24,000 bases of DNA from NCBI GenBank assembly GCA_934875675.1, contig CAKXIK010000019.1:21894-45893 (forward strand), given 5' to 3'. Origin of the DNA: an uncultured bacterium. GTDB lineage: Bacteria; Bacillota; Clostridia; Oscillospirales; Acutalibacteraceae. Made by a program: the position numbers and the translations under genes. The notes beneath the pieces are model-generated. The model saw only the letters and a list, made by a program, of their open reading frames with translations, was not told the origin of the DNA and did not search any database. Shown here piece by piece: positions 9,045-21,178 of this stretch; the stretch's first letter is position 1; each line of letters starts with the position of its first letter.

Positions 9045-9917
9045 ATGAAAAAGCGTAGTTTGGCGTACTTGCTAATGCTTTTCCTGTTTTTGAGTCTTAC
9101 TCCCGCGGCTGTAAGGGCAGACAGTGCACCCAGCCCCCGTATTCAGGTTCATTTTGAAGGAATGGAAAGTGAAACATATTTTGTAACATTGCTGGTTTTG
9201 CCGGATGATTGGGACGAGCGGGACGGCATGAATAATTTTGATGGGAATGACGAACGGCGAATCTGGGAAAAGTTTAATGCCTTTTCAGACCCGGATAGGT
9301 ATCGTTTTACAGGATCATTTGAGAACTGCTCACAAACTCACTCCTATACGTGGGGTAGTATTCCACCCCAGCAATATAAAATTTTGATTTATTTTCCGGA
9401 ACACGACAAGCTGGCAATCAGTGCACCCTGCCGTCCGTATGCATTCAGCAGCTATTACACGATTACGGTGGACAAGGACGATTTCTCCGTATCAAATCAA
9501 ACGGTATTGGGGTTGTCTGTGCGCCGATCGTATGATTACACCAGCGAGATTATTTCTATGCTTTTGCGGATTTTTCTTACCATTGCTGTGGAGTTTGGAA
9601 TTGCATGGATTTGCGGATTCCGCAGTCGCAGTCAGGTAATCGTTATTTTGGTGACAAATATTTTGACGCAAACAATCCTGAATGTGTTGCTTAATTTAAT
9701 TGGATATCGGTATGGTCTGTTGAATCTCATTCTCAATTATGTTTGGGTTGAAATAGTAGTATTTCTGATTGAGGGAGTTGTTTACGCCAGACTCTTACCT
9801 CGTTTTTCGGAAAATCCAGTCAGAGAAAAGTCTCCTTGGGTTTATGCTGCGATTGCAAATACGGCCTCATTTTTTGCGGGGGAGTTAATTGCATGTATTT
9901 TTCCGGCTTTTCATTGA
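9045..9917 (+). CDS. Hypothetical protein: signal peptide, extracytoplasmic domain of about 150 aa, C-terminal 4-TM module
   Basis: An AAAGGAG SD lies 7 nt upstream. The N-terminus MKKRSLAYLLMLFLFLSLTPAAVRADS is signal-peptide-like. The C-terminal hydrophobic helices contain membrane-embedded glutamates (TIAVEFGIAW, VWVEIVVFLIEGVVY, FFAGELIACIF). Confidence 0.6.
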   Translation: MKKRSLAYLLMLFLFLSLTPAAVRADSAPSPRIQVHFEGMESETYFVTLLVLPDDWDERDGMNNFDGNDERRIWEKFNAFSDPDRYRFTGSFENCSQTHSYTWGSIPPQQYKILIYFPEHDKLAISAPCRPYAFSSYYTITVDKDDFSVSNQTVLGLSVRRSYDYTSEIISMLLRIFLTIAVEFGIAWICGFRSRSQVIVILVTNILTQTILNVLLNLIGYRYGLLNLILNYVWVEIVVFLIEGVVYARLLPRFSENPVREKSPWVYAAIANTASFFAGELIACIFPAFH

Positions 9918-10133
9918 GCTTTCAGCATTTTGAGTGAGTGAAAAACCGGTTCTCGGATACTAATATATAATTATTATAAATTCTGTTCTGGATTCTGTCA
10001 AAACTGAAATTATACGAATCTTCAAACAAAACAAATCCCACGAAAGAAAACCGGGGCGGTCAGGGTTTTGGGCAAAAAATGTTTCGGCAAGGAAGAAAAG
10101 CTTCGTATAAAAAGGAAAGGACGTCTTTGACCG

Positions 10134-11435
10134 ATGGCACATGTTCAAATCAAAAAACAACAAGTGTGGTGGGTGCTGGCAGCGGTTTTGCTGTTCGCCG
10201 CAATCACAAGGCTGCTGCTTGCAATGACTTACCTCAATTCATTTGATACGGAGTGGTATCTCAAATGGGCGGTGGATATTCAGAATGGGCTGTTCAATGC
10301 GTATGACGGTCATGTTCGGGATTTGGACTACCCCCCCATTTATCTGATTTTGTTGTGGCCGGTCGGCAGACTGCTCAACATTGATCTTTTGGCGACCTAT
10401 CAGCCTTACCGCATGCTGCTGATTAAGTTTTGGCCGATTCTGTTTGATTTGCTCACGGTGGCAGCGATTTACCTCATCTTCCGCAAGCGTTCGGTGTTTT
10501 TGGCGCTCTGCGCAGCGGCTGCATGGGCGGTCAATCCTTCGGCAATCTTCAATTGCTCCTGTTGGGGGCAAACGGATACAATAATGACCTTTCAGCTGCT
10601 GCTCGTGTTTGCCGCATTTGATGAAGACAAGCCGCTTTGGGGCACGTTCTGGTTTGCACTGGCAGCCTTGACAAAAATGCAGTGCCTTTACTTTGCGCCG
10701 GTAATTTTGTTCTGGTTTATTCGCAGACAGGATTGGAGCCGGCTGTGGCGTGCGCTTGCAATCGGCTTCGGAACGGTTCTGGCAGGATTCTTGCCGTTTA
10801 TGATTGCAAGTAAAAATATGCTGGCGATTTTTCAAATCTACTTCGGCGGGTTTGGAAAGTATCCCTATATCAATCTCAATGCGTTTAATTTGTTCGGCTT
10901 GGGTGATTTCAACTGGGTAACGGATGAGCTTTCCATTATTGGCGGAAGCCCGAATGCGGATGGACTCATGGTGGGCGGATTCACATTTTCCATGCTGGGC
11001 ACGATCCTGATGCTTGCCTCCATTGTGTTCGTGTGTTGGATGATGCTGGCGGCGAAAAAGACGAATATCTGGCTGCATGCTGCACTTTTGATGCAGTGCC
11101 TGTTTATTCTCACCACCCGGCAGCACGAGCGATATCAATTTATTGTCATGATTCTGTTGCTGGGAGCGTTCCTGACCGAGCAGGATTTCAAAATTTTCGG
11201 ATTGTTTGCAGGTGTTTCGTTTGTCACATTCTTCAATCAGTCACTGCTTCTTGATAAAATTATTCATAAGGATGCGCCCTATATTGCATCCTTCAATGCG
11301 CTGCAGGCTGTCGGTTCGGCAATGAATGTGGTGCTGTTCTTCTGTACCGTTGCACTCTGTGTGATGCATACACAGGGCTTGCGACCGGTGTTTGGCAAAA
11401 AACAACCCGAACGAAAGGTGGAATCCGTTTCATGA
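10134..11435 (+). CDS. GT-C fold integral-membrane glycosyltransferase (Gpi18/PMT_2/DUF2029-like)
   Basis: 433 aa and polytopic. The first-loop acidic motif and following block (YLNSFDTEWYLKWAVDIQNG...LDYPPIYLILLWP) are typical of polyprenyl-phosphate-sugar-dependent GT-C enzymes. The stop overlaps the yfhO start (ATGA at 11432-11435). The family call is from memory of motif patterns. Confidence 0.6.
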   Translation: MAHVQIKKQQVWWVLAAVLLFAAITRLLLAMTYLNSFDTEWYLKWAVDIQNGLFNAYDGHVRDLDYPPIYLILLWPVGRLLNIDLLATYQPYRMLLIKFWPILFDLLTVAAIYLIFRKRSVFLALCAAAAWAVNPSAIFNCSCWGQTDTIMTFQLLLVFAAFDEDKPLWGTFWFALAALTKMQCLYFAPVILFWFIRRQDWSRLWRALAIGFGTVLAGFLPFMIASKNMLAIFQIYFGGFGKYPYINLNAFNLFGLGDFNWVTDELSIIGGSPNADGLMVGGFTFSMLGTILMLASIVFVCWMMLAAKKTNIWLHAALLMQCLFILTTRQHERYQFIVMILLLGAFLTEQDFKIFGLFAGVSFVTFFNQSLLLDKIIHKDAPYIASFNALQAVGSAMNVVLFFCTVALCVMHTQGLRPVFGKKQPERKVESVS

Positions 11436-14005
11436 ATTACTCCGCGAAGCTCGGCTCACCAAAAAAGTGGTGGGAAAGCCGTGCGTTCCGTGCATTTGCA
11501 TTGGGGCTTGGCTGTTCGTTTTTGTTTTTTATCCCGTTTATTATTTTTGACCAGGGATATTTTCTGTTTTACGGTGATTTCAATGTGCAGCAGGTGCCGT
11601 TTTACCAGATGATTCACGACGCAATCCGCAGCGGGGACATCGGTTGGAGCTGGACGACGGATCTCGGGGTCAATCTGATCGGATCCTATACGTTTTACAA
11701 TCTCGGGAGCCCGTTTTTCTGGATTACACTGCTGTTCCCGAGTGCAGCCGTGCCGTATCTGATGGGGCCGCTGCTGATGCTGAAATTTGCATTTTCTGCG
11801 CTTTCGGGTTATATTTACCTGCGCCGCTATGTAAAAAATCCTGATAATGCCGTGCTGGGCGGATTGCTTTACGCATTTTCCGGTTTTGCCGTTTACAACG
11901 TCTTTTTTAATCATTTTCATGAGGCGATTATTATTTTCCCGCTGCTGCTTGCCGCGTTGGATGAGTATATGGAGACTGGGCGGCGCGGATTGTTTGTGCT
12001 CGCGGTGTTTGCTTCGTGCCTGATGAATTATTATTTCTTTGCGGGTCAGGTGGTTTTCTGCTTTATTTACTGGATTATCCGTGTTGCGACCGGAAGCTGG
12101 AAAAATGTCACGCTGCGCCGGTTCGGGTGGTTGGCATTTGAGTCCGTGCTGGGTGTTGCAATGACAGCGGTGCTCTTGCTGCCAACGGTGCTTGCGGTAA
12201 TGCAGAACAGCCGTGTCAACAGTCCGACCTATGGCTGGGGCGCACTGCTCTATGGCAATGAGCAGCGGTATCTGCATATTCTTTCATGCATGTTCTTCCC
12301 GCCCGATATTCCTGCGCGTGCTAATTTTACGCCGGATTCCAATGCAAACTGGGCATCATTGGGCGCCTGGCTGCCGCTTTTCTCCATGACCGGTGTCTTT
12401 GCATGGATGCAGATCAAAAAAAAGCATTGGAGCAAAAAGCTTGTCGGAACGCTGGTACTCATGGCATTTATTCCGATTTTAAACAATGCATTTCAACTGT
12501 TTAATTCGGCTTTTTATGCCCGCTGGTATTATATGATGATGTTGATGTTTGCTCTGGCAACCGTGCAGGCAATTGAAACGGAGGAAGCAGATTGGCGGCG
12601 TGCATTCCGGTGGACGTTCGGCATCACCGCAGCAATCGCGGTGGGAATCGGCTTAATGCCGAGTAATATTGACAAAACAACCGGGCAGATTTCCTTTGGA
12701 CTTGAAAAATATCCGGAACGCTTTTGGACGTATGTTGCCATCGCATTTTTAAGCTTGCTGCTCTTTTATATTTTGATGCCGCTGATTCGCCGAAATCCCA
12801 AAAAATTTACGCGGAATGCAACGGCGGGTGTGCTGATTATTACCGTAGTCTACGCCGCATATTTCATCGGTCTGGGCAAAACCCAGTCGTATGATACGCG
12901 GAATTTCATTATTCCCTATGCACTCAATAACGGTAAGGATGTTGACCTGCCGGACGAAGAGGGACAGACGCAGAACTATCGCGTAGATTTTTATCAATCA
13001 ATGGACAATATGGCGATGTATTGGCAGATGCCCAGTATTCAGGCATTTCATTCTATTGTACCGGGCTCGGTTATGACGTTCTACCCGTCCATCGGTGTGG
13101 AACGTGGGGTTGGTTCGCGCCCGGATACCACGCATTACGGAATCCGAGGGCTGCTTTCGGTGAAATATCTGTTTGATTACACCGGAGACGGCAACAATTT
13201 TAAAGACGGCGACGCAACGCAGATGCCGGGCTTCACTTATTACGCAACACAGAACGGTTTTGATGTTTATCAAAATAACAATTACGTTCCGTATGGCTTC
13301 ACCTATGACAAAGTGATTACCCGCGCACAGTTTGAGGAAACGGCGCAGGCCAACCGGGAACTGCTCCTGCTCAAGGCAATGATGGTGGAGGATGCAGACT
13401 ACGACGAGGTGTCGCAGGTGCTTTCCCCCATGAGTGAAAATGAGCTGGATGGCCAGACGTATTCCCAGGATGCTTATGCACAGGATTGTGCTGATAGAAA
13501 TCAGCAAACCTGCTATGAATTTTCCTGCGATGGCGGCGGATTTGTTTCAAAAATTAATCTTTCCAAGGAAAACTATGTGTTTTTCAGTGTGCCATATGAA
13601 TCGGGCTGGTCAGCGCAGGTGGACGGAGCTGCAGCGGAGATTGTACCAGCCAATAACGGGTTTATGTCGGTTCTGGTGCCGCAGGGTGACCATACCATTA
13701 CTTTCACCTATAAAACACCCGGTCTTTCTGCCGGATTTTTGATTACGCTGATCTGTGTGCTGATTTTGTTGTTGTACCTGTGGTGGATGCCCAAACGTGA
13801 CGAAAAGATTTCGCTGCGCTTTGCACAAGAAGCTGCCGCCAATGAAAAGATTGCAGCGCAAAACCGTGCGGAACGTGAAGAAAACGGTGAGAAAAATGAA
13901 ACCGATGCATCTGTTGTGATGACAGATATTTCTCTCCGTACGGAAGATGAGCAAAAGATATCCACAGAAGAGTATGTCTCACCGGATGATGAAATAGAAC
14001 CGTAA
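11432..14005 (+). CDS. yfhO: YfhO family membrane glycosyltransferase
   Basis: 857 aa. The N-terminal signature FFIPFIIFDQGYFLFYGDFNVQQVPFYQMIHDAIRSGDIGWSWTTDLGVNLIGSYTFYNLGSPFFW is characteristic of YfhO. It has many TM segments, a large extracytoplasmic C-terminal domain, a final TM and an acidic tail. Confidence 0.85.
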   Translation: MNYSAKLGSPKKWWESRAFRAFALGLGCSFLFFIPFIIFDQGYFLFYGDFNVQQVPFYQMIHDAIRSGDIGWSWTTDLGVNLIGSYTFYNLGSPFFWITLLFPSAAVPYLMGPLLMLKFAFSALSGYIYLRRYVKNPDNAVLGGLLYAFSGFAVYNVFFNHFHEAIIIFPLLLAALDEYMETGRRGLFVLAVFASCLMNYYFFAGQVVFCFIYWIIRVATGSWKNVTLRRFGWLAFESVLGVAMTAVLLLPTVLAVMQNSRVNSPTYGWGALLYGNEQRYLHILSCMFFPPDIPARANFTPDSNANWASLGAWLPLFSMTGVFAWMQIKKKHWSKKLVGTLVLMAFIPILNNAFQLFNSAFYARWYYMMMLMFALATVQAIETEEADWRRAFRWTFGITAAIAVGIGLMPSNIDKTTGQISFGLEKYPERFWTYVAIAFLSLLLFYILMPLIRRNPKKFTRNATAGVLIITVVYAAYFIGLGKTQSYDTRNFIIPYALNNGKDVDLPDEEGQTQNYRVDFYQSMDNMAMYWQMPSIQAFHSIVPGSVMTFYPSIGVERGVGSRPDTTHYGIRGLLSVKYLFDYTGDGNNFKDGDATQMPGFTYYATQNGFDVYQNNNYVPYGFTYDKVITRAQFEETAQANRELLLLKAMMVEDADYDEVSQVLSPMSENELDGQTYSQDAYAQDCADRNQQTCYEFSCDGGGFVSKINLSKENYVFFSVPYESGWSAQVDGAAAEIVPANNGFMSVLVPQGDHTITFTYKTPGLSAGFLITLICVLILLLYLWWMPKRDEKISLRFAQEAAANEKIAAQNRAEREENGEKNETDASVVMTDISLRTEDEQKISTEEYVSPDDEIEP

Positions 14006-14057
14006 CAATGCGGAGGGGATTTGATATCCGCCCGTGCAATAAAGAAGGGTCGAGATT

Positions 14058-15011
14058 GTGATGGAGAAAAACACCGTTTATCTGGTAGTGCCGTGTTATA
14101 ATGAGGAGGCGGTTCTGCCGGAAACAGCAAAACGGCTGCAGGAAAAGCTTCGCGGAATGATGAAAGCAGGCAGGGCGGCAGCCGATAGCAGGATTCTTTT
14201 TGTCAATGACGGCAGCAAGGACAAAACATGGGAGCTGATTGAACAGCTCCATCAGCAAAGTGAGCTGATCTGCGGCATCAAGCTTTCCCGCAACCGCGGA
14301 CATCAAAACGCACTTTTGGCAGGGCTGATGGCAGCAAAAGAAAATGCAGCGTGTGCCATCTCGCTTGATGCGGATTTGCAGGATGACATTGAGGTTCTGG
14401 ACGAATTTATGGACAAATACCTGGATGGTTGCGACGTGGTTTACGGCGTACGCAAAAAGCGCGAAACTGATACCTTCTTTAAGCGTACCACGGCGCAGGG
14501 TTTTTACAAGGTGATGAAGGCGATGGGGGTGGATGTGGTTTATAATCATGCCGATTACCGCTTGATGAGCCGCCGTGCATTGGAGGGTTTGGCAGAGTAT
14601 AAAGAAGTCAACCTGTTCCTGCGCGGTATTGTTCCGCTGATCGGTTATCGTTCGGATTATGTTTACTACGACCGCCACGAACGCTTTGCGGGCGAGTCCA
14701 AATATCCTCTTAAAAAAATGCTTGCCTTTGCAATGGATGGCATTACATCCTTCAGCGTGAAACCCCTCAAGCTGATTTCGAATTTGGGGATTCTGGTTTC
14801 TGTGCTCAGTGTAATCGGGCTGCTTTATGCGCTGATTGCAAAGTTGTGCGGTGTGGCAGTGCAGGGATGGACTGCAATTGTTGCTTCCATCTGGTTGCTC
14901 GGCGGGCTGCAAATGCTCTGTTTGGGCGTGGTGGGAACGTATATCGGCAAAATTTACAGTGAAGTGAAGGCTCGTCCGCGGTATGTGGTCGAGGAATTTT
15001 TGAAGAAATAA
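14058..15011 (+). CDS. GT2 polyprenyl-phosphate glycosyltransferase (GtrB/CsbB-like), with 2 C-terminal TM segments
   Basis: VVPCYNEE, NDGSKDKT, LSRNRGHQNALLAGL, DADLQDD and ERFAGESKY, plus two C-terminal TM helices, give the classic GtrB/CsbB architecture. The start is GTG 14058 or ATG 14061 behind AAGAAGGG. Confidence 0.85.
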   Translation: MMEKNTVYLVVPCYNEEAVLPETAKRLQEKLRGMMKAGRAAADSRILFVNDGSKDKTWELIEQLHQQSELICGIKLSRNRGHQNALLAGLMAAKENAACAISLDADLQDDIEVLDEFMDKYLDGCDVVYGVRKKRETDTFFKRTTAQGFYKVMKAMGVDVVYNHADYRLMSRRALEGLAEYKEVNLFLRGIVPLIGYRSDYVYYDRHERFAGESKYPLKKMLAFAMDGITSFSVKPLKLISNLGILVSVLSVIGLLYALIAKLCGVAVQGWTAIVASIWLLGGLQMLCLGVVGTYIGKIYSEVKARPRYVVEEFLKK

Positions 15012-15320: not shown

Positions 15321-15348
15321 TTGACAAATTATCAAATGGTACTACAAT
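15321..15348 (+). promoter_or_regulatory. Near-consensus sigma-A promoter TTGACA-N16-TACAAT driving the riboswitch leader
   Basis: TTGACA at 15321-15326 and TACAAT at 15343-15348, about 55 nt upstream of the aptamer. Confidence 0.55.
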
Positions 15349-15402
15349 AGATTATAGGATAATAATAAAAGAATAGAACGGGTTGGTTGTGTTCTTTTGG
15401 AT

Positions 15403-15494
15403 GATCGAAAATAGGGCAAATCTGTCGAAAGGCAGTGGCGCAAAGCTATAGGGTCTGAATGTGCATTTGTACATATGACTGCCAGCTGCATCGA
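15403..15494 (+). promoter_or_regulatory. c-di-GMP-I (GEMM-I) riboswitch aptamer
   Basis: The sequence is ATAGGGCAAATCTGTCGAAAGGCAGTGGCGCAAAGCTATAGGGTC...GACTGCCAGCTGCATCGAT. It has a GGCAAA start, a 5-bp hairpin capped by a GAAA tetraloop (CTGTC-GAAA-GGCAG), the conserved CGCAAAGC core and a second stem GGGTC/GAC.GCC, then AGCTG. Compare the V. cholerae Vc2 aptamer, GGGCAAACCAUUCGAAAGAGUGGGACGCAAAGCCUCCGGCC. Closing helix ATCGA (15403-15407) / TCGAT (15490-15494). No covariance-model score was obtained. Confidence 0.75.
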
Positions 15495-15526
15495 TTTTTG
15501 TGGATCGTTTGCAGATGTTTAGACTT

Positions 15527-15552
15527 GAGCGCCGTGACCGGGCGCTTTTTTG
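15527..15552 (+). terminator. Intrinsic terminator, the riboswitch expression platform
   Basis: AGCGCC (15527-15532) pairs with GGCGCT (15541-15546) across an 8-nt loop, followed by TTTTTGTTT. It sits between the aptamer and the first ORF start at 15576. Confidence 0.65.
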
Positions 15553-15575
15553 TTTGGCGGAAAGTGAGCTTTACC

Positions 15576-16190
15576 ATGCTGATATTCTTTTTTCTGGCGT
15601 TGTTGGTTGGTCGGCTGCAGGGCAGGCAGGTGAGCACCGTTTTTTACCAAAAGTGTTTGATCCCGTACTTCATTCTTGAATTTTGCTACATCGGTGTGCA
15701 GTTTTCCACCTTTTGCGGATATTACGGATTTATTCCGTATGCCGAATGGATTAAGCGGCTTTATTTTCTGGTGCTGTTGGTTCCGATTTTGGTACATCAG
15801 CTTTATGTACCCGCAATTGCAGGTGCAGGTTCGGTCGCGGTGGGAACCCTGCTCAACCGGGCGGTGATGAATGCTAACGGCGGAAAGATGCCGGTGTTCG
15901 CAACGCTTGCCCGTTGGACAGGCTACTATACATCAGACTTTTCCGCAGTGGGAGATACAATTCACATGGCGGGAGATTCCACGGTAAAGCTGGCGTTTTT
16001 GGCAGATTATATTGATCTTGGATACTGTATTTTAAGCGTTGGAGATTTGCTGGTGCATGCATTTACGTTTATTATCGTGTATGCGCTGGTTCGTAAGGTT
16101 TGTCCCATGCGGGACAAGCAAATGCAGCGGTCAAAAATGGATGCCGAGGATGGAACAATCGGTCATAAATGCGGAAGGAAGAACAAATGA
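15576..16190 (+). CDS. DUF5317-like integral membrane protein
   Basis: ORF 15459..16190. Its 5' 117 nt cover the riboswitch and terminator, so I start at ATG 15576 (MLIFFFLALLVGRL). LNRAVMNANGGKMPVF and ILSVGDLLVHAFTFIIV resemble the DUF5317 conserved blocks (N..VI.ANGG.MPV ... S.GD.L) as I recall them. Confidence 0.55.
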   Translation: MLIFFFLALLVGRLQGRQVSTVFYQKCLIPYFILEFCYIGVQFSTFCGYYGFIPYAEWIKRLYFLVLLVPILVHQLYVPAIAGAGSVAVGTLLNRAVMNANGGKMPVFATLARWTGYYTSDFSAVGDTIHMAGDSTVKLAFLADYIDLGYCILSVGDLLVHAFTFIIVYALVRKVCPMRDKQMQRSKMDAEDGTIGHKCGRKNK

Positions 16191-16711
16191 TGCAAATTGT
16201 TGCAAAAGTCCTTTTTGAGTACATTTTATGCTACCTTGCACAGTCCTTTATTATTACGATGGGGCTTTTTGCGTTTTGTCGTAAAAAGATTGTCCAGCCC
16301 GAATTTTTAATCGCCTCCGGCATTATTTTTGCAGGCTCTGTCATTGTTCGCAATTTGCCGATCAGTTATGGTGTGCCAACGCTGTTTATTATGATGATCA
16401 CTGCGTTGGTGAGCATTTGGTACTTAAAGTTTCCGATCAATCTTTCCATTCGCAGCGCATTGTTTATGACATTGATTCTGTTTGCGGGCGAAATCGGCAA
16501 TATTTTATTTTTAAAATTGATTTTAGGAAATGAGCGGTTTGCACAAGTGATTAATGACGCAGAAACCAAGTTTATTTATGCAATTCCGTCCACAGTGATT
16601 GCATTGGTTATTACGCTGGTTTATTATATTGTTCAGGAAAAAAAGCATGCACTGCAAATTTCTCCGGAAAAGCAGGATCAAACGGAGGATACTACATGGA
16701 ACAATTTTTAG
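16187..16711 (+). CDS. Hypothetical polytopic membrane protein (about 5 TM), translationally coupled between the DUF5317 gene and agrB
   Basis: ORF 16169..16711. I prefer the ATG at 16187 (GGAAGGAAG SD 6 nt upstream), which forms an ATGA overlap with the upstream stop. About five hydrophobic helices are followed by a hydrophilic tail. No family recognised. Confidence 0.55.
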   Translation: MMQIVAKVLFEYILCYLAQSFIITMGLFAFCRKKIVQPEFLIASGIIFAGSVIVRNLPISYGVPTLFIMMITALVSIWYLKFPINLSIRSALFMTLILFAGEIGNILFLKLILGNERFAQVINDAETKFIYAIPSTVIALVITLVYYIVQEKKHALQISPEKQDQTEDTTWNNF

Positions 16712-17331
16712 ACCGATTGTCAGATACAATTGCAGAAAGACTGCATTATGATAAAAATCAGCAGGCGGTTGTGCGCTATGGGTTAGTAGCACTTTCACAA
16801 ACGGTTATTATTTTTTTTCTGCTTGTTATTTTAGGACTTTGCTTTGGTTTCTTTGCCCAAGCGCTTGCAGTGTTTTTTTCGGTTGTTCTTTTGCGCAAGC
16901 AGGAGGGCGGTGCCCATGCCTCTTCTTTGACAGGGTGTTTGATTCTTACCAGCCTTGTTCTGACGGCGTTGGCGGTACTTTCCCGCTATGTTTTTCCGTT
17001 GGCGGGTTCGGTCGCTGCAATGATTTTGATTGTGGTGCTGGGAGTCGTTTGTGTTCTGATTTCCTACCGGCTTGTCCCGGTAGAATCTCCGAATAAACCG
17101 CTTCGCGATCCGAAAAAAATTGCCCGGTTGCGGAGAAATACGTTTTTGCTGCTTGCCGTTTACCTTTCCGCCGCATTTTTACTCGCATTACCAAAGGATG
17201 TTCTGCCGTTTTCTTCTGTGAGCATCGCATTTGCGATTCTTTCCGGAACGGTGTGGCAGACATTCACACTGACAAAACCGGGTCGGTGGCTCGTGGATAA
17301 AATGGAGCTCCCGTTCCGGCGTTTTAATTGA
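16696..17331 (+). CDS. agrB: Accessory gene regulator protein B (AgrD-processing membrane endopeptidase)
   Basis: 211 aa. It has the AgrB-like N-terminus and the catalytic block RKQEGGAHASSLTGCLILTS, with His and Cys 7 residues apart as in S. aureus AgrB H77/C84. There are four or more TM segments and a basic C-terminal region. A GGAGGA SD is present. The start overlaps the upstream gene by 16 nt. Confidence 0.85.
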   Translation: MEQFLDRLSDTIAERLHYDKNQQAVVRYGLVALSQTVIIFFLLVILGLCFGFFAQALAVFFSVVLLRKQEGGAHASSLTGCLILTSLVLTALAVLSRYVFPLAGSVAAMILIVVLGVVCVLISYRLVPVESPNKPLRDPKKIARLRRNTFLLLAVYLSAAFLLALPKDVLPFSSVSIAFAILSGTVWQTFTLTKPGRWLVDKMELPFRRFN

Positions 17332-17382: not shown

Positions 17383-17508
17383 ATGCTGAAAAACAAAATT
17401 TTGGGAGTTGTTGCTGTAGCCGCAACATTCCTGGCGTCCATTGCTGCTACCTCCGCCTGCCTCTGGTTTATTTACCAGCCGGAAGAGCCAGAATGCCTTT
17501 CTAAATAA
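17383..17508 (+). CDS. agrD: AgrD autoinducing-peptide precursor (41 aa), missing from the ORF track
   Basis: A GGAGGA SD at 17371-17376 lies 6 nt before the ATG. The translation is MLKNKILGVVAVAATFLASIAATSACLWFIYQPEEPECLSK. It has an amphipathic N-terminal leader, a Cys-containing core and an acidic, proline-containing tail. It lies 51 nt downstream of agrB. It closely resembles C. perfringens AgrD (...TSACLWFTHQPEEP...) as I recall it. Confidence 0.8.
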   Translation: MLKNKILGVVAVAATFLASIAATSACLWFIYQPEEPECLSK

Positions 17509-17552: not shown

Positions 17553-17672
17553 TCGCACAAAAGGAACCGCAGCTTTTGGAAAAAGGCTGCGGTGCCTTTT
17601 GTATTACGGGGAAATTTGGAACATTGTCACATATTTGAGAAAAAGTAATGAGTCGCAAGAAAAGGAACCGCA
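17553..17672 (+). repeat. Direct repeat TCGCA-N1/2-AAAAGGAACCGCA, two copies about 100 nt apart
   Basis: Copy 1 is at 17553-17571 and overlaps the left arm of the agrD terminator. Copy 2 is at 17653-17672. The 13-mer AAAAGGAACCGCA is identical in both (17559-17571 and 17660-17672). Confidence 0.6.
17563..17603 (+). terminator. Intrinsic terminator after agrD
   Basis: GGAACCGCAGC (17563-17573) pairs with GCTGCGGTGCC (17586-17596), with one mismatch and a 12-nt loop. TTTTGTATT follows. Confidence 0.7.
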
Positions 17673-17849
17673 ATCATTAAGTAGTTGGCTTGTAAGCAGA
17701 TTCTTTCTTTTGTCTGCCATTATCAAAAGATTAGTGTTGCTCGAATCAAGAGATTTCAGATTTTTTTAACAGAAATTAATATGAATTTCGATTGAAACGA
17801 TAGATAAAAATCTTTGGAAAAATCGCGTAGTTCCAAGCTTATTCCTTGA

Positions 17850-17884
17850 TTCTGATACTATTTTATTGAAAATCAGTATCAGAA
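17850..17884. promoter_or_regulatory. Perfect 10-bp inverted repeat TTCTGATACT-N15-AGTATCAGAA just upstream of the GGDEF/HD-GYP gene
   Basis: Arms at 17850-17859 and 17875-17884. The repeat ends 16 nt before the GAAAGGAAA SD of the gene starting at 17918. Confidence 0.35.
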
Positions 17885-17917
17885 GGTATTCTTTGACACA
17901 GAAAGGAAATCTGCGCT

Positions 17918-19585
17918 ATGACTGATTTTGAACGCAGGAGAAGCCAAAAACTAAAAATTATTTTATTTACCTTGAAAATTTTAACAATTCTTTTTTCGGC
18001 GGTTCCGGTGTTTCAAAAAATTTTTCCTCAGGGAGCAACCACTTTTCCAACGAGTGATTACACCAGCACGTTGTTTGCAGAACTGTTTACCGGAGCGGTT
18101 ATCGGTTTAATCATGTTGCTCTGGAGAATGCTCAACAAAGGAAATGTGCGCAGCCGGTTTTATACGGTGTTGGAACTGAGCATATTCTTTCTGCTGATGA
18201 TGCTGGCGGTTTTTTGCAGCGGAGGTCCTACCAGTTCCTATAAATTTTTGTTTTTGTATTTAATTATTTCTCATGCAATTGAATATGGAATTAAGATGGG
18301 ATTTATCGTTTCGGGAATTTCATCGATTCTTGTGCTGGGAACCGATGCATGGGGATTAATCAATCAGGTTCCCGGAAGTTACTTGGAAAACGACATTGCA
18401 ATGATGGCAATGTTTATTTCCATTGCATGGACGTTGGGCTACTATTCCTCAATGGGGGGTCGTTTTATTGAACTTCTCAAGGAACACGCCAATCGGGACG
18501 GACTAACATCCAGCTACAATCATCGTTACTTTTTTGAGGTGTTCGAGCAGGATTTTGAGGAAAGCCGCAGGGATGAAAAAAAGCTCTGCATCGCCATGCT
18601 GGATATTGACCATTTTAAGGAATTTAATGATACCTATGGCCATCAAAAGGGCGATGCCGTGCTGGTACGCGTTGTGAATGAGATGCAGCACTACTTTTCC
18701 ATGACAGATGGAATTTTTCGATATGGTGGAGATGAGTTTGCGGTGATCCTGCGTGACATGTCATCGAAGCAGGCTTGCGAACTGACAGATGCCTTTCGTA
18801 CACACATTGCATCCACGCTCTGTGTGGATGAAGCGGAAAATCCATATCATGTCAAGCTGACGATCTCCGTGGGTATAGCAGAAATTTCACCTTCTATGAA
18901 TAATTATATGGACATGATCGGCAGAGCGGATACGGCACTTTATAATGCAAAATTCCTCAACCGCAACCGTGTAGAGGTTTTTTCTTCCTTGTTTGAGGAA
19001 ATTGATAATTCCGCTGACCTGAAACTGCACAATACGCTCACCTCTATGCGTGCATTGATTTCTGTTATTAATTCGCGCGATGATTACACCTATAATCATA
19101 CCAACCGCGTGGCGAAGTATTGCTGGATGATGGCGCGCCAGTTGGGTTTGAACCGTGACGATGCCAGAACACTGATGGTGGGCGCTTATTTGCACGATTT
19201 GGGCAAGATTAATTATCAAAAAGGTTTGCTGATTGCAGAATCGCCGCTGACCGATGAAGAGTGGGCAGAGCTTAGGAAACATCCCGTTTATGGTGCCGAA
19301 ATCGTGCGGCAGATTGGCGGATTCGAAGATGTTGTTACGTTGATCTTGCAGCATCACGAGCGTTATGACGGCAAAGGCTATCCATATGGTCTTTCAGGGG
19401 AAAAACTCAGCCGACTTTCCCGTGTGCTGACCATTGCAGACTCTTACGATGCAATGGTCAATGACCGTCCGTATAAAAAGAAAAAAACACAGGAGCAAGC
19501 GATTGCCGAATTGGAACGCTGCTCCGGCACACAATTTGATCCCGATCTTGTACAGGAATTTATCCGTATGATTAAAAATATTTGA
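17918..19585 (+). CDS. Membrane-anchored bifunctional c-di-GMP enzyme: N-terminal multi-TM domain + GGDEF diguanylate cyclase + HD-GYP phosphodiesterase
   Basis: 555 aa. The first 190 aa or so contain about 5-6 hydrophobic helices. GGDEF domain: RDGLTSSYNHRYF...MLDIDHFKEFNDTYGHQKGDAVL...FRYGGDEFAVIL. HD-GYP domain: HTNRVAKY...GAYLHDLGKI...HHERYDGKGYPYGL...IADSYDAM. Both catalytic signatures are intact. Confidence 0.9.
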   Translation: MTDFERRRSQKLKIILFTLKILTILFSAVPVFQKIFPQGATTFPTSDYTSTLFAELFTGAVIGLIMLLWRMLNKGNVRSRFYTVLELSIFFLLMMLAVFCSGGPTSSYKFLFLYLIISHAIEYGIKMGFIVSGISSILVLGTDAWGLINQVPGSYLENDIAMMAMFISIAWTLGYYSSMGGRFIELLKEHANRDGLTSSYNHRYFFEVFEQDFEESRRDEKKLCIAMLDIDHFKEFNDTYGHQKGDAVLVRVVNEMQHYFSMTDGIFRYGGDEFAVILRDMSSKQACELTDAFRTHIASTLCVDEAENPYHVKLTISVGIAEISPSMNNYMDMIGRADTALYNAKFLNRNRVEVFSSLFEEIDNSADLKLHNTLTSMRALISVINSRDDYTYNHTNRVAKYCWMMARQLGLNRDDARTLMVGAYLHDLGKINYQKGLLIAESPLTDEEWAELRKHPVYGAEIVRQIGGFEDVVTLILQHHERYDGKGYPYGLSGEKLSRLSRVLTIADSYDAMVNDRPYKKKKTQEQAIAELERCSGTQFDPDLVQEFIRMIKNI

Positions 19586-19640: not shown

Positions 19641-19864
19641 TGTACAGAGTTTTGTGTGGTGAAGATTGTCTGGTATTTTGTTCGGAATTATTCGGTTTTC
19701 ATTTGGGGTAAAATGTTTTATACTAATACTCATCGGAAGATTATCGCAGTTTCGGAAAAATGTTTCCTTAATTTTTGTGCAAGAAGATTATTCTTTTGCA
19801 GAATCAGGGAATCACACTTTTGCCGTTACAACATGATTCAATGATTTTGAAGGAGGCAGACGAA

Positions 19865-21178
19865 ATGTCCAGTTACCAGACCAGAAAAACTCCTGGCGAT
19901 ACAGAATGGTTTCGCCATGACCGTTTTGGAATGTTCATTCACTGGGGGCTTTATGCGCTTCCGGCGCGCCATGAATGGGTAAAAACATATGAAAAAACAC
20001 CGGAGGAAGTGTATGAGCGCTACTTCCGCCATTTTGATCCCGATCTTTACGATGCGCGCGAATGGGCTCGCCAGGCAAAAGCAGCAGGAATGAAGTATGC
20101 AGTGCTTACCACCAAGCATCACGAAGGCTTTTGCATGTTTGATTCGCAGTATACCGATTACAAATGCACCAATACGCCCGCGGGACGAGACCTGGTGCGG
20201 GAGTATGTGGACGCGTTTCGTGCGGAAGGACTGAAAATCGGGTTCTACTATTCCTTAATTGACTGGCATCACCCCGATTTCCCGATTGATCCGCTGCATC
20301 CGCGCTGCAATGACGAAAATGTGGAGGAACTCAACCGCGGTCGGGATATGCACCGCTATGCCGAGTATATGCGCAATCAAGTGACCGAGCTGCTTACCAA
20401 TTACGGAAAAATTGATATCCTTTGGTTTGATTTTTCCTATTCGAATAATAATCCGCCGGAAAAACCGTGGCTGCGCGGCAAGGGCAAGAAAGATTGGGAA
20501 GCAGAAGAACTGATTGCTACCGCACGCAAGCTGCAGCCGGGCATTATTATTGATAACCGTACCGAAATTGAGCAGGATCTTTGGACGCCCGAGCAGTATC
20601 AACCGCAAAGCTGGGTGCGCCACAAGGAAACCGGAGAGCTTGTTACGTGGGAAGCATGCCAGACATTCTCGGGTTCCTGGGGGTATTTCCGTGATGAAAC
20701 CAGCTGGAAGTCGCCGGAAATGTTGATTCAGATGCTTGTGCAGACGGTTTCCCTCGGCGGAAATCTGCTGATGAACGTGGGACCCACGGCTCGCGGATGT
20801 TTTGATTACCGTGCGCAGGCCGCATTGCAGGTGTTTGCCGACTGGATGAAATTCAATAGTCGTTCCATTTACGGATGCACAATGGCCGAGCCGGAATTTG
20901 TTGCGCCCAACGGCTGTCGTCTGACACAAAGCGAGGACGGCAAACGGCTTTATGTGCACCTGTTCCAATATCCTTATGCATTTTTGGAACTGCCGGGATT
21001 TGGAGGAAAGGTAGAGTATGCACAGTTCCTGCATGATGCCAGTGAAATTCGCTTTACAGAAAACGGCGTGCAGCATTTCGGTGAGGGGCTCAGTCAGGAT
21101 GAGGGACTTCTGGTGCTCAGTCTGCCGGCAGTCAAACCGCCGGTAACCGTTCCGGTCATTGAGCTGTTCCTGAAATAA
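19865..21178 (+). CDS. Alpha-L-fucosidase, glycoside hydrolase family 29
   Basis: ORF 19775..21178. I prefer the ATG at 19865 (MSSYQTRK), with a GGAGG SD about 8 nt upstream. GH29 blocks are present: WFRHDRFGMFIHWGLYALPA, KYAVLTTKHHEGFCMFDS, GLKIGFYYSLIDW, DILWFD, GGNLLMNVGP. Confidence 0.9.
   Translation: MSSYQTRKTPGDTEWFRHDRFGMFIHWGLYALPARHEWVKTYEKTPEEVYERYFRHFDPDLYDAREWARQAKAAGMKYAVLTTKHHEGFCMFDSQYTDYKCTNTPAGRDLVREYVDAFRAEGLKIGFYYSLIDWHHPDFPIDPLHPRCNDENVEELNRGRDMHRYAEYMRNQVTELLTNYGKIDILWFDFSYSNNNPPEKPWLRGKGKKDWEAEELIATARKLQPGIIIDNRTEIEQDLWTPEQYQPQSWVRHKETGELVTWEACQTFSGSWGYFRDETSWKSPEMLIQMLVQTVSLGGNLLMNVGPTARGCFDYRAQAALQVFADWMKFNSRSIYGCTMAEPEFVAPNGCRLTQSEDGKRLYVHLFQYPYAFLELPGFGGKVEYAQFLHDASEIRFTENGVQHFGEGLSQDEGLLVLSLPAVKPPVTVPVIELFLK

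Follow-up and report, generated by a model that had tools for sequence, protein, structure and literature searches.

The 5' leader of a peptide quorum-sensing (agr) operon from an uncultured bacterium of the family Acutalibacteraceae was found to contain an aptamer of the cyclic di-GMP (c-di-GMP)-I family, also called GEMM-I. The DNA analysed, referred to here as the window, comprises 24,000 nucleotides (nt) of contig CAKXIK010000019.1 (assembly GCA_934875675.1, positions 21,894 to 45,893 of the forward strand). The aptamer (15405..15493) is followed by an intrinsic terminator (15527..15555), by genes for a DUF5317 membrane protein, a second membrane protein here named X180, AgrB and AgrD, and then by a gene for a membrane sensor with six transmembrane helices, a GGDEF domain and an HD-GYP domain (6TM-GGDEF-HD-GYP), all on the plus strand. 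Taken together, the leader is probably a functional c-di-GMP-I riboswitch that acts on transcription of the agr operon via this terminator, most likely as an OFF switch. The RNA itself belongs to the known RF01051 family, and its target appears to be new.

The aptamer and the leader around it

A cmscan search of the whole window against Rfam 15 placed RF01051 at 15405-15493 on the plus strand with 64.5 bits and an E-value of 9e-11, far above the gathering score of 35, and the alignment covers the full length of the model (positions 1-87 of 87). RF01051 was the best match within clan CL00126 for 15405-15493, and no other Rfam match was obtained in the 24-kb window, even at a permissive E <= 1. 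The c-di-GMP-I aptamer, which a sequence-only reading of this DNA had already proposed, is genuine, and all the hallmark elements named in that reading are present in the region it had indicated. GGGCAAA, which contains the GGCAAA motif, lies at 15414-15420 and is followed by the aptamer P1 hairpin CUGUC-GAAA-GGCAG (15422-15435), capped by the GNRA loop GAAA at 15427-15430. The hallmark CGCAAAGC is read at 15439-15446, within the junction GGCGCAAAGC (15437-15446), which shows a single A-to-G departure from the consensus ACGCAAAGC. The second stem, P2 (15444-15487), carries a receptor-like internal loop formed by CUGAA and UAUGA.

The cmscan alignment places the predicted ligand contacts at G15415, A15442 and C15489, which we take to be the equivalents of G20, A47 and C92 in the Vc2 RNA, as numbered in published structures. 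A G at position 20 marks selectivity for c-di-GMP, and an A marks selectivity for cyclic GMP-AMP (cGAMP), as in the GEMM-Ib RNAs; Kellenberger and Nelson, both in 2015, reportedly described an A at position 20 in cGAMP-selective GEMM-Ib RNAs. The G is kept at this position in all relatives and all leader types described below. The G at 15415 fits the preference for c-di-GMP over cGAMP that the sequence-only reading had assumed, and the aptamer is predicted from it to bind c-di-GMP selectively.

The same promoter, aptamer and terminator were found in 11 further loci of Acutalibacteraceae-like metagenome-assembled genomes (MAGs), giving five leader types in all. RF01051 scored 68.6 bits in L001, L083 and L087, 67.3 bits in L002 and L084, 59.8 bits in L082, 45.2 bits in L085, where a contig end cuts the aptamer, and 39.2 bits in L081. 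The aptamer was assigned by sequence identity in L044, L096 and L103, the leader of L044 being of the L001 type, and in L086, located on a cut contig, the last aptamer bases, the hairpin H described below and the terminator remain. Over the five leader types, the canonical Rfam aptamer structure is 95% paired and two pairs are altered on both sides. These pairs were counted on the Rfam structure, since RNAalifold on the five aptamers returned a non-canonical consensus, the sequences being too few and too similar. A P1 helix built from the immediate flanks of the aptamer was also considered and was rejected because it is not conserved among the relatives.

Upstream of the aptamer lies a sigma-70-type promoter (15321..15348) with TTGACA at 15321-26, a 16-nt spacer and TACAAT at 15343-48, which matches the consensus at 11 of 12 positions and has both hexamers invariant across the relatives' leaders. 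Transcription is predicted to start near 15355, and the aptamer begins about 50 nt into the predicted transcript. No second promoter-like site was detected by a promoter scan from the aptamer to the ATG of the first gene. Between the predicted start and the aptamer, an inverted repeat (I1) and the minimum-energy fold indicate a 5'-proximal leader hairpin at 15367..15398, at whose position the relatives form a different hairpin.

The aptamer is overlapped at its 3' end by a further hairpin, H (15486..15514), in which CUGCA (15486-90) pairs with UGCAG (15510-14) and CGAUUU (15492-97) with GGAUCG (15502-07). Because the final nucleotides of P2 and the C92 equivalent are both taken up by hairpin H, H and the ligand-bound aptamer are predicted to be mutually exclusive; H is present in every ligand-free minimum-energy fold. 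In the relatives, the lower stem of H reads GCUGCAAA/UUUGCAGC, with single G-U-compatible changes in L084 and L082, and the upper stem is wholly swapped for GGC/GCC with pairing retained. In L081, a different hairpin stands in place of H and likewise captures the P2 3' strand.

The terminator scan detected the intrinsic terminator GAGCGCC/GUGACCG/GGCGCUU (15527-15547), followed by UUUUUUGUUU, which together span 15527..15555. It has a 7-bp stem with five G-C pairs and a 7-nt loop and starts 33 nt past the aptamer end, as had been read from the sequence before. The terminator is found in all five leader types, always with a U-run after it, and its arms vary yet pair, being GAGCGCC/GGCGCUU, GGCGCCG/CGGCGUC or, in L082, GACGCCG/CGGCGUC. 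Promoter, aptamer, H and terminator are collinear in the aligned leaders, which are conserved from the promoter to the start codon. A terminator right after the aptamer is a standard expression platform among Bacillota riboswitches.

Two further features were observed behind the terminator hairpin. In the window (15546-15568) and in the relatives' leaders, base pairing is possible between the U-run and the purine-rich ribosome-binding region, GGAAAGUGAG. The post-terminator sequence (GUUUGC/GGCGGAA) is similar to the 3' strand of H (CGUUUGCAG...), and in L081 this copy is exactly GUUUGCAG.

Direction of control

In the proposed mechanism, hairpin H (15486-15514) would capture the 3' strand of the aptamer when no ligand is bound, and its formation would free the aptamer core at 15436-41 and 15451-59 for pairing with 15518-34. 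This pairing would occupy the left arm of the terminator, and RNA polymerase would continue into the downstream genes. Once c-di-GMP is bound, the aptamer would retain its core strands, H and the antiterminator would be blocked, the terminator would fold and less autoinducing peptide would be made. The riboswitch would thereby couple peptide production to a second messenger that the neighbouring 6TM-GGDEF-HD-GYP protein may make or degrade.

The candidate 5' strands of the antiterminator, UGGCGC (15436-41) and GGGUCUGAA (15451-59), lie inside the aptamer (15436..15459), and the candidate 3' strands, UUUAGACUU (15518-26) and GCGCCG (15529-34), lie at 15518..15534, where GCGCCG overlaps the left arm of the terminator. 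UGGCGC may pair with GCGCCG, GGGUCUGAA with UUUAGACUU, and the 5' flank with the U-run; in an alternative pairing in the window, AAG/CUA and CUU/UAG pair beside UGGCGC/GCGCCG instead of GGGUCUGAA and UUUAGACUU. The sequence-only reading had noticed part of this, namely a complementarity between GGCGC in the aptamer core and GCGCC in the terminator, of which the position of GCGCC (15529-15533) is correct, whereas GGCGC lies at 15437-15441 and not at 15436-15440. The 5-bp antiterminator that this reading took as a hint of an OFF switch turned out to be the core of the larger set of candidate pairings described here; however, the control described below is significant in only one relative.

A duplex between the aptamer core and the pre-terminator region, calculated with RNAduplex, has an energy of -16.8 kcal/mol, which was equalled by 1.6% of shuffles. 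When nascent ligand-free RNA of the window or of L001 was folded without the 3' arm of the terminator, the minimum-energy fold paired the aptamer core with the terminator left arm. Hairpin H forms one branch inside this nascent antiterminator fold, which suggests that its role may be to free the P2 5' strand.

In the full-length window leader, the antiterminator-enforced fold reaches -44.3 kcal/mol, compared with -46.1 kcal/mol for the terminator fold. The difference between non-terminator and terminator folds was compared with a control in which the terminator base pairs were permuted with their stability kept, using soft constraints. It amounted to +1.8 kcal/mol in the window (percentile 30% of the permuted terminators), -1.5 kcal/mol in L001 (2.3%), +0.6 kcal/mol in L002 (9.7%) and +3.8 kcal/mol in L081 (33%). 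Of the alternative folds with and without the aptamer that the sequence-only reading had envisaged, the aptamer-enforced side was recovered throughout, with the terminator forming in every leader, whereas free RNA has a non-terminator fold as its full-length energy minimum only in L001.

Several of these results weigh against an OFF switch. The ligand-free minimum-energy fold holds both H and the terminator in the window, L002, L081 and L082, so that read-through in the OFF model would rely on kinetic trapping. By the permuted-terminator control, the energy gap between antiterminator and terminator is unusual in L001 alone and not in L002, the window or L081, and GC-rich terminators are shown to find such partners often by chance. 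The pairing probability of the terminator left arm is indistinct between free and aptamer-enforced nascent RNA (0.71 versus 0.81 in the window). The antiterminator partners vary by leader type, and hence there is no clean covariation. Moreover, the L081 aptamer reaches only 39.2 bits and has mismatches in P2. An apparent covariation of G/A at 15438 in the aptamer with the right arm of the terminator was dropped, as L081 combines the G with a GCGUC arm; the pattern arises from the terminator's own complementarity.

Some of these observations favour the opposite model, an ON switch, in which H and the terminator would stop transcription by default and c-di-GMP would somehow prevent termination and raise peptide production. 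Termination does look like the thermodynamic default, with the terminator present in the ligand-free minimum-energy fold of four of the five leader types, the statistical support for an evolved antiterminator is weak, and the adjacent cyclase could provide positive feedback. However, the terminator forms in all leaders even when the aptamer is enforced, and the linker that the ligand-bound fold sets free shows no stronger pairing with the terminator than shuffled sequence does (-6.8 kcal/mol in the window versus -9.8 kcal/mol in the null), so that no antiterminator is visible for an ON model, which would also leave hairpin H without a role. An ON switch is thus regarded as rather unlikely, and the OFF switch is probably the better supported of the two by the modelled folds, even with weak statistical support for the antiterminator. 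The sequence-only reading had left the direction of regulation open.

It was also considered whether the terminator is a constitutive attenuator, with the choice between aptamer and H governing mRNA stability, processing or, through pairing of the U-run with the ribosome-binding site, translation, or with the aptamer being an inactive relic. Folding gives no clear coupling of the terminator to the aptamer state, in several leaders the purine-rich ribosome-binding site is a possible pairing partner of the U-run, and the L081 aptamer is weak. Such an arrangement is nevertheless improbable, because aptamer, H and terminator are kept together in all five leader types with pairing preserved, aptamer scores far exceed the threshold, and an aptamer followed by a terminator is what Bacillota riboswitches typically use. 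That the aptamer senses another dinucleotide, for instance 3'3'-cGAMP as in GEMM-Ib, is very hard to credit: among solved structures, the neighbouring HD-GYP domain matches a cGAMP-specific phosphodiesterase best (5z7c, 124 bits), but a c-di-GMP HD-GYP enzyme scores almost as high (4mcw, 121 bits), that neighbour has a standard GGDEF motif, and the G20 equivalent is G in every leader type, in place of the A of GEMM-Ib.

The agr operon and its distribution

The target named in the sequence-only reading, DUF5317 followed by agr genes, agrees with the profile matches. The first operon gene (15576..16190) encodes a DUF5317 membrane protein of 204 amino acids (PF17248, 69 bits). Public gene calls start it at 15459 (243 amino acids) and thereby run through the 3' half of the aptamer, H and the terminator. 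DUF5317 homologues align from M1 at 15576, and a purine-rich AAAGUGAG at 15561-68 is a possible ribosome-binding site for this start. On sequence comparison, 15576 is most probably the real start and the call at 15459 wrong; the latter conceals the riboswitch leader in the annotation. An AlphaFold2 model of DUF5317 has a predicted confidence (pLDDT) of 88 and found no fold match in the PDB.

X180 (16169..16711) is a 5-helix membrane protein of 173-180 amino acids without a match to any Pfam or NCBIfam family. Its likely start is 16190 (173 amino acids), as homologues start at MQI, and from this position it overlaps the DUF5317 stop codon by 1 nt. The gene for AgrB, the AgrD-processing peptidase (16696..17331; PF04647, 124 bits), starts within the end of X180 with an overlap of 16 nt (16696-16711). 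The overlaps at 16190 and 16696-16711 suggest coupled expression, and the four operon genes would be transcribed together. The fourth gene (17383..17508) encodes AgrD, the autoinducing-peptide precursor of 41 amino acids (TIGR04223, 53.8 bits with a cut-off of 19), and is followed by an operon-end terminator with a 12-bp stem (17566..17593; terminator scan), which is conserved in L001, L002 and L096.

The AgrD core is SACLWFIYQPEEP (CLWFI), and the cysteine core together with the C-terminal acidic tail reads SACLWFIYQPEEPECLSK. Among the AgrD sequences of 66 loci, the frame (S/T)SAC-x4-YQPEEP is nearly invariant and only the four residues after the cysteine vary; the core is CLWFI in the window and CFWFI in L001 and L002. 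Such variation would be in keeping with thiolactone rings of five residues whose specificity differs by lineage. Among the scanned open reading frames (ORFs) of the window, no histidine kinase or LytTR regulator that could represent AgrC or AgrA was found, with three ORFs of 110-182 amino acids lying outside the scan. By its gene content, the operon appears to match the standard C. perfringens-type four-gene agr operon of the orphan agrBD type. This operon type, the conserved GGDEF-HD-GYP gene downstream and the restriction of the riboswitch to one clade were all absent from the sequence-only reading.

A DUF5317 profile search with one genome per species yielded 80 loci, in which partners were sought by tblastn with the window proteins, and the cassette was counted in the 59 loci having at least 3.8 kb downstream. 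AgrB and AgrD were found in 55/59, the GGDEF-HD-GYP gene, placed after AgrD, in 57/59 and all four partners in 44/59. Among 61 full-length neighbours, 56 retain an intact GG(D/E)EF, and all 61 have intact HD and HHExxDGxGYP motifs. Cassette loci span Proteiniclasticum, Clostridium, Lachnospiraceae, Oscillospiraceae and others, and the closest named relatives of the window are Acutalibacteraceae MAGs.

Rfam was run at the gathering threshold on the profile-search loci except L034 and L044. Among the 80 loci, an RF01051 match immediately in front of DUF5317 is restricted to L001 and L002, the closest relatives, and to L044, where it is seen by alignment, and no riboswitch of any Rfam family was found upstream of the cassette in about 73 more distant loci with at least 500 nt of upstream sequence. 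All DUF5317 orthologues with 67% identity or more have the element in front of them, including the remaining close homologues (67-99% identity) encoded on the contigs L081 to L087. A pattern scan of metagenomes added L096 and L103, both with the full cassette, and its other 15 matches were unrelated GEMM-I leaders. The presence in close relatives and absence from distant cassettes argue that the cassette is old and widespread and that the riboswitch was added to it in one clade, all of whose loci carry it.

Two other GEMM-I RNAs were seen near related genes. In the metagenomic locus L094 (about 9270-9980), one immediately precedes an ORF that is weakly similar (26-30% identity) to the window GGDEF-HD-GYP protein. 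In an Oscillibacter MAG (L049, 816-900), the other precedes different genes, 5 kb upstream of a cassette that has no riboswitch of its own. Concerning the wider surroundings, envelope-glycosylation genes (a GT87-like protein, YfhO and a GT2 glycosyltransferase) occupy 10134-15011 upstream of the riboswitch on the same strand. Downstream, an alpha-L-fucosidase gene (19775-21178) is syntenic in L001, L002 and L034, unlike the upstream glycosylation genes.

The neighbouring sensor and known systems

The 6TM-GGDEF-HD-GYP membrane sensor (17918..19585) has 555 amino acids, with Pfam scores of 134.7 bits for GGDEF and 128.3 bits for HD_5, and carries the motifs GGDEF at residue 270, HDLGK at 426 and HHERYDGKGYP at 479. 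The conserved terminator past agrD shows that this gene is, in part at least, transcribed as a unit of its own. In the stretch from this terminator to the start of the sensor gene (17600-17900), the window has about 240 nt more DNA than L001, L002 and L096. An inverted repeat, CTGATACT (17851-58)/AGTATCAG (17875-82), lies about 35 nt before the sensor start codon and may be an operator or an RNA hairpin.

The N-terminal 191 residues of the sensor form six helices and represent a domain that is rare: at E <= 1e-3, only 92 of 1.84 billion cluster representatives matched it. The full-length proteins that carry it fall into two types, GGDEF-HD-GYP proteins of about 555 amino acids and histidine kinases with or without PAS. 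Its occurrence on both protein types indicates that this region is, by sequence comparison, a modular input domain. One homologue passes the threshold of Pfam PF25323 (6TM_PilS), whereas the window sensor itself stays below it (11.6 bits, E = 0.22). As in PilS-type proteins, the domain is also found on HisKA/HATPase_c kinases; the predicted output of the window sensor, in contrast, is c-di-GMP turnover.

Gene neighbourhoods were inspected for four domain-sharing kinases in informative contexts. In L109 and L110-112, a gene of 153-157 amino acids homologous to X180 lies directly beside the kinase, even without agrBD. X180 matches the L110 ORF with E = 1.9e-13, and the kinase-side neighbours match each other with E-values of 1e-23 to 1e-26. 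The kinase of Alkaliphilus metalliredigens (L108) is separated by 1.1 kb from an X180-like gene, agrB and an AgrD-like gene. These genes lie at 7516-8787 in L108, 7430-7903 in L109 and 5509-5970 in L110, and no X180-like neighbour was found for the L107 kinase. From these neighbourhoods, X180 appears to travel with this sensor domain, with or without agrBD. A similarity of X180 to the sensor N-terminal domain itself was looked for by BLASTP, and there was none.

It is a tentative possibility that the five-gene cassette forms a complete peptide quorum-sensing circuit with c-di-GMP output, in which the peptide derived from AgrD, or a product of its processing, is received by the 6TM-GGDEF-HD-GYP protein, probably in concert with X180, and the riboswitch closes the loop in the clade of the window. 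This model is supported, without proof, by X180 accompanying the sensor domain. If true, an RNA sensor would stand in place of the staphylococcal AgrA-P2 feedback, and there would be a receptor candidate for clostridial 'orphan' agrBD loci.

The targets of known c-di-GMP riboswitches are motility, pili, adhesins and proteases. The RNA described here shares with the c-di-GMP-I RNAs Vc2 of Vibrio cholerae and Cd1 of C. difficile, the latter upstream of flgB, the GAAA-capped P1, the receptor-bearing P2, the G20, A47 and C92 equivalents and the location in a 5' untranslated region. It also has the intrinsic-terminator expression platform in common with Cd1, a reported OFF switch. It differs from the known c-di-GMP-I riboswitches in that its target is a peptide quorum-sensing synthesis operon, in the additional conserved hairpin H between aptamer and terminator, and in that the agr association is limited to one Acutalibacteraceae-like clade.

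In C. perfringens, the agr operon CPE1563-CPE1562-agrB-agrD consists of two hypothetical ORFs, agrB and agrD, which are co-transcribed (PMC2706048). Its signal peptide is CLWFT(H), and VirS was proposed as the peptide sensor (PMC7300355). The window has the same four-gene order, in which agrB and agrD are preceded by two ORFs for uncharacterised membrane proteins, and its locus likewise lacks agrC and agrA. The AgrD cores differ little, with CLWFI here compared with CLWFT, and CPE1563, CPE1562 and CPE1560 are putative counterparts of DUF5317, X180 and the GGDEF-HD-GYP gene. In none of the scanned loci from Clostridium species did a riboswitch precede the cassette, and none has been reported for C. 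perfringens.

The agrBDCA locus of Staphylococcus aureus likewise ties peptide production to an intracellular signalling state and has a sensor gene beside the synthesis genes. There, however, AgrC/AgrA acts on the P2 promoter, whereas in the window a nucleotide-sensing RNA would take the place of the LytTR regulator, and the adjacent sensor has GGDEF and HD-GYP outputs and is not a kinase.

In C. difficile, agrA affects genes for c-di-GMP enzymes (PMC3754575), and agrB1D1 expression falls 2- to 4-fold, by an undefined route, when DccA is over-expressed (bioRxiv 10.64898/2026.06.10.731418). The nearest published links between agr and c-di-GMP run the opposite way or are indirect. The proposal of the sequence-only reading that a peptide quorum-sensing operon would be a new class of target holds, as no c-di-GMP riboswitch upstream of agr genes was found in open-access full text, an earlier mention elsewhere being possible. 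Nothing was found there on DUF5317 or on a cassette of agrBD with GGDEF-HD-GYP either.

Control of peptide synthesis at the RNA level would be a new contact between a single-cell second messenger and population signalling in gut Clostridia. Beyond the riboswitch, agrBD of many Clostridia is accompanied by two membrane proteins of uncharacterised function and a membrane-bound GGDEF-HD-GYP sensor, which provides candidates for peptide sensors in loci lacking agrCA. The riboswitch-bearing clade may serve as a naturally occurring case where the peptide, c-di-GMP and expression of the operon should depend on each other.

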